A DNA stretch of 64,000 nucleotides from Escherichia coli (GCF_003991155.1 NZ_CP031293.1), one strand, 5' to 3'; shown: positions 56,965 to 63,115, numbered from the stretch's first letter. Made by a program: numbers and translations. Notes: a model not told the origin generated them from the letters alone.

Positions 56965-57002
56965 AATGCCTTCCCTTAAAAATAGTTGAAACTATCAAAA
57001 AA

Positions 57003-57026
57003 CCATTACTTATTGCTAAGTAATGG
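57003..57026. promoter_or_regulatory. Perfect 24-bp palindrome upstream of the LysR gene (candidate autoregulatory operator)
   Basis: CCATTACTTA-TTGC-TAAGTAATGG lies 39 bp upstream of the regulator ATG. Confidence 0.4.
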
Positions 57027-57115
57027 CAACCAAAGCAGCAATCAATATTTTATAAAAATCATGTTCGATATTTATAACCTGGTAAGCCTGGCGTGACAAT
57101 TGTCTCAATCAGACA

Positions 57116-57154
57116 ATAATAATCCGAAAAGCAAAACGCCCTTCGGATTATTAT
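57116..57154 (-). terminator. Hairpin downstream of the ammonia-lyase-like gene
   Basis: ATAATAATCCGAA-13 nt-TTCGGATTATTAT is a 13-bp stem. On the minus strand it is followed by ATTGTCTGATTG. Confidence 0.45.
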
Positions 57155-57234
57155 GATTCAAGTTAAGTGAAGATTATTAAATTGATAGCAATTATCATAT
57201 CTATGGATATTATGACAAACAATCAACAAAAATT

Positions 57235-58905
57235 TTATTTTTGATTTATAGCATATCCTTCTAAGAATTTTTGCGAAGCTGCAATATCTGGGGTAAAGAC
57301 CCGATCCTGGTCGACAAACGGCACGACTTTTCTGTATTCGGTAAACATTGCTTTGGTGGATTTCCCTAATGCCAGTTGTGGATCGGCCTGCAACCGTAAA
57401 TCGAGAGCCTGTGCGGAATGCATCAGTTCAATGCCATAAATCACGTTCAGATTATCGACAACCTGTTTCAATCTTCTGGCCGCGTGGTCATTATTGGCAC
57501 CGGTATCTTCTATACCTCCGGCAACCGGTTGAATATCGAAAGAAACCGGGTTAGCGAGATCGACATTTTCCGCATGCAGCGCAACAAACGGGATATGTAA
57601 TGAACCGAAGCCATGACCTTTATTACCTGCTGCCGACAGGAAGCGTGACAAACCGGTAAAGTGATCATCTTCAAGATGCAGCGAGCGGCGCATACTGTTA
57701 TGTGAAACATGCACTAACGCCACGGTCAGACGCTGGGTGGCAAGCGCAACCGGTAACGATTCGAAATTCGCCGTCGGGAAGATCCCACCGCTGATTGCCC
57801 CATCTTTAACAAAATATTGCGCGACCTGACTGGAGTCCTGATACGCTTTGTCTGCATTCAGCACGGTTGCCGGGTTGTCATCGGAACTGTTGATCTGCAC
57901 GGTAATGGTATCTTCAGCATCGCGCAACGCGCGCATTGCCTCAGAAATGGTATACACCGTCGTTCTGAACGATAACGGATCCTGCAATGCACGTTTGTCA
58001 TGCTTATGCCATAAATAAGAACCACTTAACGCATCGCGAATCTCTTTAGCGGAATCAGCCAACTGCGGGAAAGGACGCACGGCGATCGACTGCGGCAGTA
58101 CCGGCGCGACATTGCCATTCAACGCTTCCAGACTCATAGCGAAAACCACCGGGCTGACATTCAGCAACTGACGTGCCGAACGAACAGCTTCGATAGCGTA
58201 GGCTGTCCCGACGCTGTTGTTCGATAAAATCGCCAGCATATCTTTACCCTGCGGTACCAGTGGCTTAAGTCCCACTTTCGCCAGCGCGTCACCACCGCTC
58301 ATTTGCACGCCATTTACTCGGGCTTTCCATTCCCCCATCATCACCAGACCAACGTGCGAAGCGAGCATAATATCCGCTGCGCCGATACTTCCCCGCACCG
58401 GAATTAACGGTGTAACGCCGCGATTAATAAATTCGGCATACAACTCGGCAATATAAGGCTGTGCGCCGGTTTGCCCATGCAGCATGGTATTTAAACGTAA
58501 TACCATTGAAAGGCGTGCCAGATAATCCGGTAACATCGGACCAACGCCCGCAGAATGGGCGCGCAGCGCGGCAGCATTAAATTTTTTCGACGCGTCAATC
58601 ACCTCAGGCGTTAAATTTCCTTTGGCATCAAATATGGGCTGATCTTTATTTAGCCCCACGCCCACGGTTAAGCCATAAACAGGCGTACCTGAATGCGCGG
58701 CAGTCATCACCAGATCATAACTTTTTTCCATGCGCTCCATGGCGTTCGACGCGATTTTGACGCCGTTATCACCTAATGCAATTGACCAGGCCTGGTCAAT
58801 GGAAAGATGTTCGCCATCCAGCGTAATGGTTGATTTCGCCATCGCAATGGAGCAAACGCTCCAGAGCACAACGGTGACAGTGACTCTTCGTATCAATCCT
58901 TTCAT
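57235..58905 (-). CDS. Aromatic amino acid (histidine/phenylalanine) ammonia-lyase-family protein with an N-terminal signal peptide and no Ala-Ser-Gly MIO motif, 556 aa
   Basis: MKGLIRRVTVTVVLWSVCSIAMA|KSTITLDGEHLS... aligns collinearly with HutH from residue ~25. The MIO region reads GSIGAADIMLASH where HAL has GSVGASGDLAPLAH. Confidence 0.85.
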   Translation of the reverse strand: MKGLIRRVTVTVVLWSVCSIAMAKSTITLDGEHLSIDQAWSIALGDNGVKIASNAMERMEKSYDLVMTAAHSGTPVYGLTVGVGLNKDQPIFDAKGNLTPEVIDASKKFNAAALRAHSAGVGPMLPDYLARLSMVLRLNTMLHGQTGAQPYIAELYAEFINRGVTPLIPVRGSIGAADIMLASHVGLVMMGEWKARVNGVQMSGGDALAKVGLKPLVPQGKDMLAILSNNSVGTAYAIEAVRSARQLLNVSPVVFAMSLEALNGNVAPVLPQSIAVRPFPQLADSAKEIRDALSGSYLWHKHDKRALQDPLSFRTTVYTISEAMRALRDAEDTITVQINSSDDNPATVLNADKAYQDSSQVAQYFVKDGAISGGIFPTANFESLPVALATQRLTVALVHVSHNSMRRSLHLEDDHFTGLSRFLSAAGNKGHGFGSLHIPFVALHAENVDLANPVSFDIQPVAGGIEDTGANNDHAARRLKQVVDNLNVIYGIELMHSAQALDLRLQADPQLALGKSTKAMFTEYRKVVPFVDQDRVFTPDIAASQKFLEGYAINQK

Positions 58906-58955
58906 TGTGTTTCCTTATCATGATGAGTTTAACAACGGGTTACTGCGACAACGTT

Positions 58956-59906
58956 TTAATTTGTTCTATCTGTTTTCCCCCGCCGGACAATACTGGTCAC
59001 CAGGCGAGCGGCAACTTTCGCAGTTAAATTATCGCGGTCCAGGTCCGGGTTAAGTTCGGCAATATCCGCAGCAATCAACTTCTCGCTACCGGCGATTAAA
59101 TTCACAATGGCTTCAGTAATATTTAACGGCACGCCTAACGGTGATGGAGCAGAAACACCGGGCGCCTGATAACCTGGTAAAACATCGAGACAAATCGTTA
59201 AATAAATGGCGTCACAAGCCTGAATATCTGCCGAGAGCGCATTAGCGATCTCATGCAAACCACGTTCAAATTGCAGAGATTCGTCCAGCCAATAACGCAC
59301 ACCGAGACAATCAGCGCGATCAAATAACGCCTGAGTATTGGCAAAACGACTTATTCCCAGCACGCGATAATGAAACGGTTTGCCATGCTGCGCGTTCCAC
59401 TCTTGCATCTGACGAAACGGCGTACCTGAATTGGCTTGTTCCGCCATCCGTAAATCAAAATGCGCGTCAAGGTTCACAATCAGTAACCGCTGAATATCCG
59501 GACGCGACTGCATAATCCCCTGAAATGTTCCCCACGCCACTTCATGACCGCCCCCCAGAACCACCGGTAAACTGCCGCGCGCAATGGCTGTAGATACGTT
59601 AGCCGCCAGACGATTTTGTGCGGATTCCAGCGCGTGGTCCTCGCTTTGTACATCGCCCATATCGAAAATAGCGCCTTCACAGAGCACTGGCATATTTCCC
59701 AACATGCTGCGCAACGCGCCCGGTCCGCCTGCTGCACCCGCTCGCCCATCATTACGTTGCACTCCGTCATCAACGGCAAAACCAATCAGCGTACAACCGC
59801 CGTGGCTTTGTTCACTAAACGGTTGCACATGCTGATGCCAGCGAGTGCTGATGCCGGTTTCCTGCGAGTCAACACGCCCACTCCACGGCAAAAATGTTTG
59901 CTTCAT
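58956..59906 (-). CDS. hutG: Formimidoylglutamase (arginase fold), 316 aa
   Basis: ORF 58956..59945 trimmed to the ATG at 59904-59906 after GGAG. MKQTFLPWSGRVD... with GGGHE, DAHFD and CLDVL metal-site motifs. TAATG overlap with hutI. Confidence 0.88.
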   Translation of the reverse strand: MKQTFLPWSGRVDSQETGISTRWHQHVQPFSEQSHGGCTLIGFAVDDGVQRNDGRAGAAGGPGALRSMLGNMPVLCEGAIFDMGDVQSEDHALESAQNRLAANVSTAIARGSLPVVLGGGHEVAWGTFQGIMQSRPDIQRLLIVNLDAHFDLRMAEQANSGTPFRQMQEWNAQHGKPFHYRVLGISRFANTQALFDRADCLGVRYWLDESLQFERGLHEIANALSADIQACDAIYLTICLDVLPGYQAPGVSAPSPLGVPLNITEAIVNLIAGSEKLIAADIAELNPDLDRDNLTAKVAARLVTSIVRRGKTDRTN

Positions 59907-61117
59907 TACCAACTCCTTTTTCCGCCGACAATAAGCCCCTGGCAAGGCTGATGCCCAAACCAGTAAGCCAGTTCACGTGGATGATTAAGATCCCAGACCG
60001 CCATATCCGCCCGTAATCCCGGTGCAAGTTCACCCCGGTCAATAAGTCCAAGTGCCTTTGCCGCATTACGCGTAACGCCCTGAACGGCTTCCAGCGGCGT
60101 CATGCGAAACAGCGTACAGGCCATATTGATCATCAATGGCAATGACATATTGGGAGACGTTCCGGGATTATGGTCCGTGGAGATAGCAATCGGCACACCT
60201 GCGGCCCGCAGAGCGACAATCGGCGGCAGATGGGTTTCGCGCAGGAAGTAATAAGCACCGGGAAGCAAAACCGCCACTGTTCCAGCCGCTTTCATGGCGG
60301 CGATCCCCGACTCGCTCAGGTACTCCAGATGATCGCAGGAGAGTGCAGAAAACGCCGCTGCCAGCGCCGCGCCTTGCTGGTCAGAAAGCTGTTCGGCATG
60401 CAGTTTTACAGGTAATCCATAGCTTTGCGCTTTACTGAAAACGCGCCGTACCTGCTCTGGAGTAAAGGCGATGTTTTCACAAAAAGCATCAACTGCATCA
60501 ATCAGCCCCTGTTCATGCAACACGCACATCCAGTCGCAAAGCGCCGTAATGTAATCATCACTGCGCCCGGCAAACTCTGGCGGCAGGCTGTGCGCCCCGA
60601 GAAACGTAGACTGAATATGTAACCCGGTAGATTGCTGCAAGCGGCGGATCACGCGTAAACAACGTGCTTCATCTTCCAGCGTTAAGCCATAACCCGATTT
60701 GATTTCAAGCGTACTGACGCCTTCACGTTGCCAGTTTCGCAGTCGCTGCGCCGCCAGTTCAAACAACTGTGTTTCGCTGGCTGCCCGCGTGGCATTAACC
60801 GTAGATAAGATCCCGCCGCCCGCTCTGGCGATATCTTCATAAGCCACGCCTTGCAACCGCATCTCAAACTCGTTCGCCCTCTGGCCGCCATACACCAGAT
60901 GTGTATGACAATCCACCAGACCGGGTGTCAGCAACTTACCCTGTAGATCGTGTTCCTCTGTAATATCAGCCGTCAGTTCACGGGGGATCTGCGTGGCCTT
61001 CCCAAGCCAGACAATCGAGTCACCACGGCTGATTAATGCCCCCTTTTCAATCACTCCCCAATCGTTAGCGGAAAGCGTCGCCAGCGTGGTATTTCGCCAG
61101 AGCGTTAATGCACTCAT
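59906..61117 (-). CDS. hutI: Imidazolonepropionase, 403 aa
   Basis: ORF 59906..61150 trimmed to the ATG at 61115-61117 (MSALTLWRNTTLATL...). It carries the amidohydrolase motif GLVDCHTHLVYGG. ATGA overlap with hutD. Confidence 0.9.
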   Translation of the reverse strand: MSALTLWRNTTLATLSANDWGVIEKGALISRGDSIVWLGKATQIPRELTADITEEHDLQGKLLTPGLVDCHTHLVYGGQRANEFEMRLQGVAYEDIARAGGGILSTVNATRAASETQLFELAAQRLRNWQREGVSTLEIKSGYGLTLEDEARCLRVIRRLQQSTGLHIQSTFLGAHSLPPEFAGRSDDYITALCDWMCVLHEQGLIDAVDAFCENIAFTPEQVRRVFSKAQSYGLPVKLHAEQLSDQQGAALAAAFSALSCDHLEYLSESGIAAMKAAGTVAVLLPGAYYFLRETHLPPIVALRAAGVPIAISTDHNPGTSPNMSLPLMINMACTLFRMTPLEAVQGVTRNAAKALGLIDRGELAPGLRADMAVWDLNHPRELAYWFGHQPCQGLIVGGKRSW

Positions 61118-61704
61118 AAGGATTTTTCCCCTCGTAGATAATAAAGCCACCAGCCCGCCAGCTCACCGACGGAGACTTTCTTCCGTGGTACGAAACGCCA
61201 GGGCCTGCCATCAGGTGCAACCAGCCATAACAACATATTTGCCGCGACAAACACCCTTTTCTTGCCGCTTATCCACTCCCCTTCACACAGCGTGAACAGG
61301 CCCGCTTGCGCAAGTGACGGAGGACGCCAGTCAACGGCACTTTGCACCCGCAACATCCCCGCATCGCCTTCCCGCGCCATAACATTCAGATCGCGAACCC
61401 CGCCGCCCAGCAGCTGGCAATCAGGCATAGCTTCTCCAGGGAAAATTAAGGCGGGATCGTGACGTTGCAGGTTGATGATCGAATCGGCAAACGTTAGCTT
61501 CACCCCTTCCCCGTCGAGAATCGCGAGGCCACGAACCACGCCAGGCCACGCTGAAAAAGAGCCATCCTGACTGACATTCGCCATACTGATGCGCAACAAC
61601 CAGTTTTCATCATCGGGCCAGGCAAGCAGCTGTCGGGTAAACCCCCCGCCGTTGCGCCACGGTTGCAGCGGCTTATCCATTGCAGAAATCAGCATCGGTT
61701 CCAT
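61114..61704 (-). CDS. hutD: HutD-family protein, 196 aa
   Basis: ...PLQPWRNGGGFTRQLLAWP... is the HutD signature (W-x-NGGG-x-T). Start codon uncertain: ATG at 61704 or the in-frame ATG three codons downstream (61695). Confidence 0.8.
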   Translation of the reverse strand: MEPMLISAMDKPLQPWRNGGGFTRQLLAWPDDENWLLRISMANVSQDGSFSAWPGVVRGLAILDGEGVKLTFADSIINLQRHDPALIFPGEAMPDCQLLGGGVRDLNVMAREGDAGMLRVQSAVDWRPPSLAQAGLFTLCEGEWISGKKRVFVAANMLLWLVAPDGRPWRFVPRKKVSVGELAGWWLYYLRGEKSL

Positions 61705-61705
61705 A

Positions 61706-63115
61706 TTAAGACTCGGGATAAATCGTATAAGCAGGAACGCAGGTGGTGCGTTTGGCCCACGGGTAATAGATAACGGCGGTAATTAACAAGCCGACAATCC
61801 AGGAGATATCCGCCCCATCCATCAGGACAGAAATGGGTCCCTGATACAGTTTTTGATTCAGGAAGGGGATCTGCACCAACACGCCTACGCCATAGCACGT
61901 CAAAGCGGTTTTGTTATACGCGCCATAACGCCCTTCCGGGGTATAAAGTGCCGGAATATCGGTTTTACCTTGTGAGATGAAGTAGTAGTCGATGAGATTA
62001 ATGGCGCTCCACGGCACAAATACCGTCAACAGCAGCAGAACGAAGTTTTTGAAATTATTCAAAAAATCTGCGCTTGCCGCCAGCGCGACGACCATCGACA
62101 ACAGCACGAACCCTACAACGTAGGCAGCACGAACACGCTGTGAAACCTGACTGCGATTATTAAAGGCGCTGACGGTCGCCAGAATCGACATAAAGCCACC
62201 GTAGGCATTCAAACAGTTCACCGTCAGTTTGCCGCAAACAATCACCGTATAAATCAGAATGGCGAAGGTGGGTCCGGCTAACTCACCCATAAAACCAACC
62301 TGATCCTTCAGGAAGTTAGCACCACAGGCCGCAACAAGCACGCCAAACGTCATGGCACATTGCGCGCCAAGCGTGGTTCCCAGAAAGGTGGCAAAGAAGA
62401 TTGATTTTGCTGGCGTATCAGAGGGTAAATAGCGGGAATAATCAGAGGCGTAAGGGGCAAACGTTAATTGCCATCCGGCAGAGAGAGCAATCGTTAATAA
62501 AAAGACCGACAGACTAAATGGCTTTTGACCAAATGCCGCAGCCACATCGTAGTGACCGCTAAGTTGAGTGGCCAGGTAAATAAACCCCAGAATACTTAAT
62601 ATCCCTGCAACACGGCCAACGACGTGAATAAGTTTATAACCGACCAATGCGATCATCGCGGTCAGCATGCCGAAAATAATAATTCCGGTCGATGCCGATT
62701 CGAAACCAAATATCCGGTTAATCGCCTGACCGGATAATACTGTACCCGTCGCGGCAAATCCAAGGTACATAATAATCACCATCAGTAACGGTAGCGCCGC
62801 TCCTTTAACGCCAAAGCGGATACGACTGGAGATCATCTGGGGTAATCCCAGCTTTGCCCCCTGCGACGAGTGCAATGCCATTACTGCACCACCAATAATA
62901 TTACCGATTAATAAACCAATTATTGCTGACATGGCTTCGGAGCCAAAAATAATCGCTAACGCGCCGTCCACCACAGCGGTAATTTGTAAGTTAGCACTTA
63001 GCCATAAAGTAAACTGACTGGATGGCGAGCCGTGGCGAGCAGACTCAGGAACGGCGTTAATCGTATTTGATTCTAATACTGGCTTTTTACTGCGGATAGG
63101 GCTGCTTGATTCCAT
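61706..63115 (-). CDS. NCS1-family (purine-cytosine/hydantoin-type) permease, 469 aa
   Basis: ORF 61706..63160 trimmed to the ATG at 63113-63115 after AGGAG. MESSSPIRSKKPVLESNTINAVPESARHGSPSSQFTLWLSANLQI... is polytopic. Confidence 0.85.
   Translation of the reverse strand: MESSSPIRSKKPVLESNTINAVPESARHGSPSSQFTLWLSANLQITAVVDGALAIIFGSEAMSAIIGLLIGNIIGGAVMALHSSQGAKLGLPQMISSRIRFGVKGAALPLLMVIIMYLGFAATGTVLSGQAINRIFGFESASTGIIIFGMLTAMIALVGYKLIHVVGRVAGILSILGFIYLATQLSGHYDVAAAFGQKPFSLSVFLLTIALSAGWQLTFAPYASDYSRYLPSDTPAKSIFFATFLGTTLGAQCAMTFGVLVAACGANFLKDQVGFMGELAGPTFAILIYTVIVCGKLTVNCLNAYGGFMSILATVSAFNNRSQVSQRVRAAYVVGFVLLSMVVALAASADFLNNFKNFVLLLLTVFVPWSAINLIDYYFISQGKTDIPALYTPEGRYGAYNKTALTCYGVGVLVQIPFLNQKLYQGPISVLMDGADISWIVGLLITAVIYYPWAKRTTCVPAYTIYPES

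Follow-up and report, generated by a model that had tools for sequence, protein, structure and literature searches.

What feeds a histidine utilization (hut) cluster that has no gene for a histidase? This question is raised by a stretch of 64,000 nucleotides (GCF_003991155.1, NZ_CP031293.1), referred to here as the window, which is identified as Escherichia coli by 100% identity to several complete genomes. At positions 57235-58905, on the minus strand and next to a series of hut genes, it encodes a member of the family of ammonia-lyases for histidine (HAL), phenylalanine (PAL) and tyrosine (TAL), called the lyase below. An initial annotation had described this protein as an exported HAL homologue devoid of the residues that form the methylidene-imidazolone (MIO) electrophile, and had left two choices, a periplasmic binding or sensor protein, or an enzyme with a different chemistry recruited to the hut cluster. 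The second is supported here, both by the MIO-less lyase family to which the protein can be assigned and by the order of the cluster. The elements of the gene and its product are the following.

57235-58905, minus strand: lyase open reading frame, ATG start, 556 aa plus stop; precursor of an almost certain MIO-independent trimethylammonia-lyase of the HAL/PAL superfamily
58911-58916, minus strand: Shine-Dalgarno-like AAGGAA, with AGGA 6 nt upstream of the first ATG (ATG1)
58837-58905, minus strand: predicted Sec-type signal peptide, residues 1-23 (MKGLIRRVTVTVVLWSVCSIAMA); the cleavage site is predicted between A-M-A and Lys24
57238-58836, minus strand: predicted mature enzyme, residues 24-556; homology to the leaderless Treponema denticola ergothionase and to Enterococcus homologues starts at residues 25-27
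58675-58677, minus strand: Tyr77, predicted beta-proton acceptor, invariant in 204 of 204 homologues; role taken from 10.1101/2025.08.13.670108, with the same number as Tyr77 of Swoo_3913 from Shewanella woodyi
58354-58392, minus strand: residues 172-184, GSIGAADIMLASH, counterpart of the MIO-forming HAL loop; Ala-Ser-Gly is lacking and the length is reduced by one residue
57964-57984, minus strand: residues 308-314, QDPLSFR; Gln308 and Arg314 are predicted carboxylate ligands, and Leu311 stands for Tyr280 of HAL
57589-57597, minus strand: His437-Ile438-Pro439, with Ile438 at the position of Lys384 in T. denticola ergothionase (alignment of TIQKTF with SLHIPF)

Family, fold and the MIO loop

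The open reading frame coincides with RefSeq WP_001361287.1 (identical coordinates, 556 aa) and is, as initially annotated, a full-length HAL/PAL homologue, since residues 34-526 match Pfam PF00221 end to end (profile 1-466 of 466, E = 2.4e-123). The lyase falls below the cutoff of all curated NCBIfam models of the HAL/PAL family, with 281.1 bits for the hutH model TIGR01225 (cutoff 539.15) and 297.6 for PRK09367 (cutoff 524), and its identity to the true HutH of related clusters is 27-30%. The top sequence match in the PDB, obtained with HMMER, is the T. denticola ergothionase 6s7j (E = 5.5e-85, with 6.7e-50 for the best HAL). An AlphaFold2 model, with a predicted local distance difference test score (pLDDT) of 85.7 and a predicted template modelling score (pTM) of 0.88, leads to the same protein, as its top Foldseek match is again 6s7j (E = 1e-31, target TM 0.90), ahead of HAL, tyrosine aminomutase and PAL structures, which match at E <= 1e-25. 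Hence, the lyase is nearer to this ergothionase than to any MIO enzyme, both by sequence E-value and by fold rank.

Ergothionase cuts trimethylamine off ergothioneine without MIO, and structure 6s7j was released in 2019. The closest characterised relative of the lyase, about 55% identical to it, is our homologue P0112, which has the length (545 aa) and both cloning primers (mature N-terminus EQVVL, C-terminus TDFITHY) of SO_3057, a periplasmic ergothionase of Shewanella oneidensis; SO_3299 uses N-pi-methyl-hercynine as substrate, and both genes lie within flavocytochrome c operons (10.64898/2026.04.22.720169). The primers of SO_3299 matched none of the 390 proteins collected, and the 80 related loci compared here contain neither SO_3299 nor Swoo_3913. 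Because 6s7j is the top match by sequence and by fold, the SO_3057 match is so similar, and the loop is shortened with Leu311 in place, we are nearly certain that the lyase is a trimethylammonia-lyase that works without MIO and that, within the HAL/PAL fold, it belongs to the ergothionase / histidine-betaine-lyase branch. This kind of enzyme is already known, periplasmic members included. The premise of the initial annotation that all characterised members of the family are cytoplasmic and depend on MIO is outdated, given the MIO-free 6s7j of 2019 and the periplasmic MIO-free lyases of 2025 and 2026.

All motifs quoted earlier for this protein are present, namely Y77-GLTVGVG, G172-SIGAADIMLASH-184, Q308-DPLSFR-314 and D342-DNP-345. 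In the HMMER alignment GSIGAA-DIML of the lyase faces GSVGASGDLAP of the Pseudomonas putida HAL (in the longer version, GSIGAA-DIMLASH faces GSVGASGDLAPLAH), with a one-residue gap and no Ser-Gly, so that the by-eye alignment is borne out and no hidden Ala-Ser-Gly triad appears. In the same way QDPLSFR is aligned to QDPYSLR of HAL, the Tyr having become Leu311. Among the 50%-identity cluster representatives of an exhaustive HMMER search (5920 hits), those with ASG or SSG all have Tyr at the QDPYS position, while those with the shorter loop have Leu or Ile, except for one divergent representative with Glu. Because the two changes covary across representatives, they are best read as the signature of a large MIO-less subfamily and not as chance events, and the absent triad, together with the low hutH score, marks the lyase on sequence grounds as something other than a canonical histidase.

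Signal peptide and start codon

Concerning location, the leader proposed in the initial annotation shows the n/h/c pattern of a Sec-type signal peptide over 23 residues, with K2, R6 and R7 in the n-region, the hydrophobic core VTVVLWSVCSIAMA, and A-M-A/K24 with small residues at -3 and -1. The 14-residue Kyte-Doolittle mean of the core is 2.14, the maximum in residues 31-556 being 1.56. In the AlphaFold2 model residues 1-22 form a lone helix with pLDDT below 50, and the fold starts from residue 25. Of the 121 called homologues, 106 are extended at the N-terminus by 15 aa or more (median 24 aa), and in 99 of these 106 the extension satisfies crude n/h/c criteria. Identity to the query is 14% in the extension and 57% in the mature part, thus the leader is kept in character across homologues. 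Leader peptides are also found in characterised relatives. Homologues of the Gram-positive Enterococcus begin at the mature N-terminus and have no leader.

ATG1 is considered the correct start from the arrangement of the sequence around it. A relative on contig L082 (76% nucleotide identity) has AGGAA at equal spacing before ATG1, and no Shine-Dalgarno-like site lies at normal distance before the alternative ATG at Met22 (58840-58842). Over codons 1-23 the comparison of the lyase with L082 yields a ratio of nonsynonymous to synonymous substitution rates (dN/dS) of 0.28, no indels, and a conserved frame. The start annotation at NCBI is inconsistent, P0002 and P0006 running from Met22 (MAKSTITL, 535 aa) and WP_001361287.1 from ATG1; the records starting at Met22 drop the signal peptide. 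A lipoprotein was considered and rejected, W-S-V-C not being a lipobox. Twin-arginine translocation (Tat) was rejected as well, as the leader is short and the RR of MKGLIRRV is kept neither in an 85% identical relative (MRKIVQGL) nor in the homologues. The missing conservation of the RR favours Sec over Tat, and we predict with considerable confidence that the lyase is exported by this route.

Active site, hut cluster and proposed reaction

The functional residues of the characterised relatives, as given in two bioRxiv preprints of the same group, are a catalytic Tyr, the carboxylate ligands Gln, Arg and Asn, and the imidazole ligands His and Glu (10.1101/2025.08.13.670108, 10.64898/2026.04.22.720169). 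Across 204 homologues Y77, Q308, R314, N339, N344 and E466 are invariant, and H117 is found in 203. The dN/dS of the lyase with respect to an 85% identical relative is 0.043 (dS is saturated in this comparison), and 0.037 for the mature part.

The picture is different at the specificity position. Lys384 of the T. denticola enzyme contacts the thiolate, ergothionase activity is lost without it, and its counterparts are Asn439 in Swoo_3913 and Gln434 in SO_3299 (10.1101/2025.08.13.670108, 10.64898/2026.04.22.720169). In the 204 homologues the column of position 438 contains Lys 172 times, Val 15, Ile 9 and Asp 8, the lyase having His437-Ile438-Pro439 where the majority has Gln-Lys-x. The His-Ile signature occurs only in E. 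coli, E. marmotae and one 85% relative (P0007), and a His-Val variant in the leaderless Enterococcus proteins and one signal-bearing metagenomic protein (P0008). Nine positions cleanly split this His-Ile/Val clade from the Lys-type proteins, including 180 beside the former MIO loop, the stretch 435-437 and, on either side of Glu466, 464 and 469. As to the grouping of MIO-less, signal-bearing homologues envisaged in the initial annotation, a neighbour-joining tree with 200 bootstraps places the clade (72%) within signal-bearing Lys-type lineages, as sister to a Burkholderiaceae group (88%). P0244, the only Asn-type representative found, whose numbering is not exactly that of Swoo_3913, is 41% identical to the lyase and sits far from its clade in this tree, hence the loss of Lys was probably independent of that in Swoo_3913. 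With Ile438 in place of the thiolate-binding Lys, the lyase probably falls outside the ergothionases proper. The His-Ile/Val-Pro active-site signature matches none of the characterised enzymes and is a new feature.

The neighbouring genes bear on the substrate. They lie on one strand in the order hutU, permease, hutD, hutI, hutG, lyase, and are listed here together with the elements downstream of the lyase.

63279-64000, minus strand: hutU, urocanate hydratase; 3' part in the window, the gene extending to about 64976
61706-63115, minus strand: NCS1-family permease (PF02133), proposed urocanate importer
61114-61695, minus strand: hutD/Ves family gene (PF05962)
59906-61117, minus strand: hutI, imidazolonepropionase; TIGR01224 451 bits, cutoff 298
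58956-59906, minus strand: hutG, formimidoylglutamase; TIGR01227 292 bits, cutoff 229; stop 50 nt upstream of the lyase ATG
57002-57027, minus strand: terminator-like hairpin between lyase stop and LysR start, 11-bp stem and T-run; a consensus match only (L001 13028-13003)
56059-56964, minus strand: LysR/GcvA-like regulator, downstream of the lyase

The full-length HutU, taken from L001, scores 934 bits for TIGR01228 (cutoff 375), whereas it reaches 670 and 672 bits for the models of thiourocanate and S-methyl-thiourocanate hydratase, below their cutoffs of 930 and 880. The vicinity of the lyase contains neither a thiourocanate hydratase nor a desulfhydrase or thiourocanate reductase. The 50-nt gap between hutG and the lyase holds no terminator-like site; the hairpin at 57002-57027 is possibly the end of the hut-lyase transcript, and the same 270-nt gap downstream of the lyase also holds promoter-like hexamers, which are again consensus matches only.

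No bona fide hutH is visible in the window, in agreement with the initial annotation, as it contains no second PF00221 gene. A hutH had been considered possible upstream of hutU beyond position 64000; in the matching complete genome NZ_CP029747 that place is taken by RtcB and sucD, no hutH adjoins the cluster, and there is no hutC in it. Sequences similar to hutH occur in 11 of 5426 complete E. coli genomes, all plasmid-borne and none on chromosomes. One record, NZ_CP163132.1, labels the lyase gene itself 'hutH: histidine ammonia-lyase'.

Orthologues of the NCS1 permease with 60-72% identity are found inside canonical hut clusters. In L089 and L091 such orthologues (65-70%) adjoin hutU and a true, ASG-containing hutH, and a Comamonas cluster comprises a hutC-like regulator, hutH, a GntR regulator, NCS1, hutU, hutD and hutI. 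The order of contig L091, i.e. hutU, NCS1, hutH (GSVGASGD), hutD, hutI, is that of E. coli plus hutH. The view that the lyase sits where hutH would be expected therefore holds for the cluster but not for the slot, since in related clusters hutH lies between permease and hutD, and the lyase comes after hutG. In L082 an 85% permease orthologue lies directly upstream of an 85% lyase orthologue. The same contig (L082 1398-5377, Logan SRR27755633) shows a degenerate 3' remnant of hutU preceding permease and lyase, with 37% amino acid identity over 113 residues and split across small open reading frames, and lacks hutD, hutI and hutG. Hut clusters of Pseudomonas carry a urocanate-specific transporter, HutTu.

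In the mechanism that we propose, the precursor would be exported by Sec and cleaved after Ala23. In the periplasm Tyr77 would abstract the beta-proton of an N-alpha-trimethylated histidine derivative, held by Gln308, Arg314 and Asn339 at its carboxylate and by His117 and Glu466 at its imidazole, yielding a 2-enoate and trimethylamine; because trimethylamine is a good leaving group, no MIO electrophile would be needed. Hercynine (histidine betaine) would in this way be converted to urocanate and trimethylamine, the urocanate would enter through the co-operonic hut-type NCS1 permease, whose role as urocanate importer we infer, and HutU, HutI and HutG would convert it to glutamate and formamide. 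The lyase would thus stand in for HutH as entry enzyme of the pathway in cluster-bearing strains. Hercynine as substrate and urocanate as product is the assignment that we favour, if only by a modest degree. It is the most likely one because Ile438 replaces the thiolate-binding Lys and a bona fide urocanase, an imidazolonepropionase and a formimidoylglutamase lie in the same operon, and our confidence is lowered by the precedent of SO_3299, the further pocket changes and the relatives in other contexts.

Several points weigh against hercynine or against its cleavage in the periplasm. The absence of Lys does not prove hercynine specificity: SO_3299, with Gln, is also without it, rejects hercynine and takes N-pi-methyl-hercynine (10.64898/2026.04.22.720169), and the proven hercynine lyase class has Asn, its only representative here, P0244, belonging to another clade. 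Beside the imidazole ligand Glu466 the His-Ile/Val clade has exchanged F/Y469 for Gly and E/N/D464 for Gly, and these clade-specific changes could mean a bulkier or different substituent on the substrate. Other members of the clade are in non-hut contexts, a hydroxyproline cluster and a cluster of coenzyme A (CoA)-transferase and FabK-like reductase, and hut genes lie within 10 kb of the lyase in none of 80 species-representative related loci. The hutU that adjoins the lyase in L082 is decayed, HutTu is only presumably an NCS1 protein orthologous to the permease of the E. coli cluster, and a start at Met22, as in some NCBI records, would make the lyase cytoplasmic. The enzyme may hence act on another N-alpha-trimethyl histidine derivative (S-methyl-ergothioneine, N-methyl-hercynine or an ovothiol-type betaine) whose product does not pass to HutU, the hut linkage being an accident of island assembly. 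The nine substitutions around active-site elements with Lys turned into a hydrophobic Ile/Val, the unexpected specificity of SO_3299, the unrelated gene contexts of the clade, with hut linkage only in Escherichia, and the frequent deletion or decay of the hut-lyase module all speak in this direction. It is nevertheless a minority possibility, if one to be taken seriously, as HutU, HutI and HutG pass equivalog cutoffs and HutU fails the thiourocanate-type models, the lyase closes a tight cluster of genes on one strand with no alternative downstream enzyme (reductase, desulfhydrase) nearby, and His117 and Glu466, ligands of unsubstituted imidazole nitrogens, are conserved.

An 'ergothionase from Escherichia coli' was reportedly described by Wolff in 1962, and the lyase could be its gene, converting ergothioneine to thiourocanate and trimethylamine. 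Its closest solved and characterised relatives are indeed ergothionases, no other gene of the ergothionase family was detected in complete E. coli genomes, and a 2026 paper doubts the E. coli activity for want of a known homologue. This is quite unlikely, however, with Ile at the thiolate position that is Lys in 172 of 204 homologues, SO_3057 among them, and given that loss of this Lys inactivates ergothionase (10.1101/2025.08.13.670108, 10.64898/2026.04.22.720169); the enzymes of thiourocanate breakdown named above are not found nearby, and E. coli W is without the island at this site. Translation from Met22 would leave the enzyme in the cytoplasm, with the permease importing the betaine substrate itself, a situation that would suit the cytoplasmic Hut enzymes and that matches the PGAP-derived records P0002 and P0006 and the leaderless Enterococcus relatives. 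We consider it unlikely, since the only Shine-Dalgarno-like site at normal distance serves ATG1, L082 keeps the ribosome-binding site, the frame and the hydrophobic character of the leader, signal-like extensions prevail among the homologues, other RefSeq records use the 556-aa form, and the tree nests the clade in signal-bearing lineages. As to a former histidase that has lost catalysis and acts as a periplasmic binding or sensor protein, a reading which the loss of MIO and of HAL Tyr280, the export and the nearby LysR regulator had made conceivable, it is now extremely improbable: the same losses are found in three characterised active enzymes, Tyr77 and the ligand residues are invariant or nearly so, purifying selection is strong (dN/dS 0.04), and the LysR gene persists where the lyase is deleted.

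Returning to hercynine cleavage in the periplasm, a broader and rather doubtful extension can be formulated. The His-Ile/Val-Pro clade might be a third specificity class, by which E. coli would cleave dietary histidine betaine outside the cytoplasm, release trimethylamine to the gut, and import the urocanate skeleton to burn it through Hut, possibly onward via the methylaspartate genes described below; if ergothioneine is tolerated without Lys, the gene could also underlie the E. coli ergothionase of 1962.

Genomic island, relatives and comparison with known systems

Of 5426 complete E. coli genomes, 143 (about 2.6%) contain at least 80% of the 8-kb hut-lyase segment. Strains 2016C-3878, MRY15-117 and CREC-544 are examples of carriers of the cluster. 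In NZ_CP029747 the sdh-suc genes up to sucD are followed by RtcB and then, on one strand, by hutU through lyase and LysR; beyond LysR, on the other strand, come cobO, a class I fumarase, a DAACS symporter, DUF4387, an AtuA-like gene, methylaspartate ammonia-lyase and glutamate mutase E/L/S, and then IS1. The island covers about 24 kb between cydA and sucD (43211-64000 of the window and past its end), a site that mngR-mngA-mngB occupy in K-12 and W; in E. coli W the island is absent at the sucD/mngR site. IS1 and two hypothetical genes lie in a low-GC stretch of the island (GC 0.36 at 44-46 kb). The island holds a complete methylaspartate (mesaconate) set for glutamate fermentation, and since glutamate is the end product of Hut, the two modules may be parts of a single route.

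The segment from hutU through lyase is missing from about 980 of the 1127 complete E. coli genomes that bear the island, O157:H7 included, and these keep the methylaspartate island and LysR; the LysR gene is, for this reason, probably not dedicated to the hut-lyase module. Between LysR and sucD of O157:H7 Gim1-1 (L095 7966-8632, compare 56965-57372 of the window) lie RtcB fragments and lyase scraps of 138 and 62 nt. Because these scraps remain at the junction, the hut-lyase module must have been ancestral to the island and later deleted, and its function seems dispensable in most lineages. Two metagenomic loci of E. coli type show further rearranged, deleted or decayed versions: in L098 (9399-11485) the lyase is present from residue 62 on, directly adjoined by a fragment of hutU, and in L103 several hut genes and the lyase are seen as fragmented matches only. 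All metagenome matches with hut genes are of E. coli type, with no independent hut-lyase linkage among them. A second, Lys-type paralogue, found in Escherichia sp. (L028) and of the same type as P0081 of E. albertii, has no match in complete E. coli genomes.

Related proteins occur in several other contexts. The Lys-type relatives adjoin flavocytochrome genes. In Enterococcus (L084/L085 4518-11554) a sigma-54 activator (PrdR-like), a FadX-like CoA-transferase, a major facilitator superfamily transporter of the lactate/oxalate-formate family, the His-Val-Pro lyase and a FabK-like flavin mononucleotide (FMN)-dependent enoyl reductase lie together, a gene set that suggests cytoplasmic reductive use of the enoate product. 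Sutterellaceae (Turicimonas, Parasutterella, Sutterella; L072, L075-L079, the second copy in L030, L104-L106) have a second signal-bearing paralogue class with Glu-Asp at the Gln-Lys position and Asp at 176, sometimes at the same locus as a Lys-type copy. In L108 and L110 lyase homologues with 42-43% identity lie near hutU-like genes (48-49% to HutU) and hutD- and hutI-like genes, probably cytoplasmic clusters for ergothioneine or thiourocanate catabolism.

The literature searched contains nothing on the hut-lyase cluster. According to the 2026 paper ergothionase-type lyases are rare in gut bacteria and have no E. coli homologue, all BLAST hits being labelled HAL/PAL/TAL. Such a lyase is nonetheless carried by about 2.6% of complete E. 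coli genomes, hidden under the label 'HAL/PAL/TAL family ammonia-lyase' or, in at least one genome, 'hutH'. Trimethylamine from gut bacteria is a precursor of trimethylamine N-oxide, and the model offers a testable reason for an E. coli hut operon without histidase or HutC. New in this lyase are the His-Ile/Val-Pro signature, the coupling to a presumed importer and the cytoplasmic Hut pathway, which is a new operon context, and the occurrence in E. coli.

In comparison with known systems, SO_3057 resembles the lyase in the MIO-less short loop, the cleavable leader peptide, predicted in the case of the lyase, the catalytic Tyr and the ligands of carboxylate and imidazole, and both fall into the same group of more than 50% identity. 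It differs by Gln-Lys-Ala instead of His-Ile-Pro and by its genes, as it is flanked by the genes for the flavin adenine dinucleotide (FAD) subunit and the haem subunit of a periplasmic flavocytochrome c and serves anaerobic respiration, whereas the lyase has a permease and the cytoplasmic Hut enzymes as partners. Swoo_3913 is a predicted periplasmic, Mg2+-dependent hercynine trimethylammonia-lyase that provides urocanate to an adjacent periplasmic urocanate reductase (10.1101/2025.08.13.670108). It is MIO-less like the lyase, has a neutral residue for the ergothionase Lys and a near-identical numbering up to residue 339, and its reaction, giving urocanate and trimethylamine, is the one proposed for the lyase. 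However, it has Asn where the lyase has Ile, and the clades differ, as judged through the Asn-type stand-in P0244 (41% identity). Its urocanate is an electron acceptor for the reductase UrdA and is not imported, whereas the lyase is coupled to catabolic HutU; more generally, the known periplasmic trimethylammonia-lyases feed electron acceptors to periplasmic reductases, and the partners in E. coli are a presumed importer and a catabolic pathway.

The T. denticola ergothionase 6s7j is the best solved-structure match and shares the MIO-free elimination chemistry, but it and the Burkholderia-type ergothionases are cytoplasmic and leaderless, carry the thiolate-binding Lys384 and belong to a thiourocanate pathway. 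HutH (P. putida 1B8F; TIGR01225), finally, has the fold in common with the lyase, as well as the neighbourhood of hutU, hutI, hutG, hutD and permease and, if the model is true, the product urocanate, and differs from it by the Ala-Ser-Gly MIO, Tyr280, the lack of a signal peptide, and the release of ammonia from histidine.

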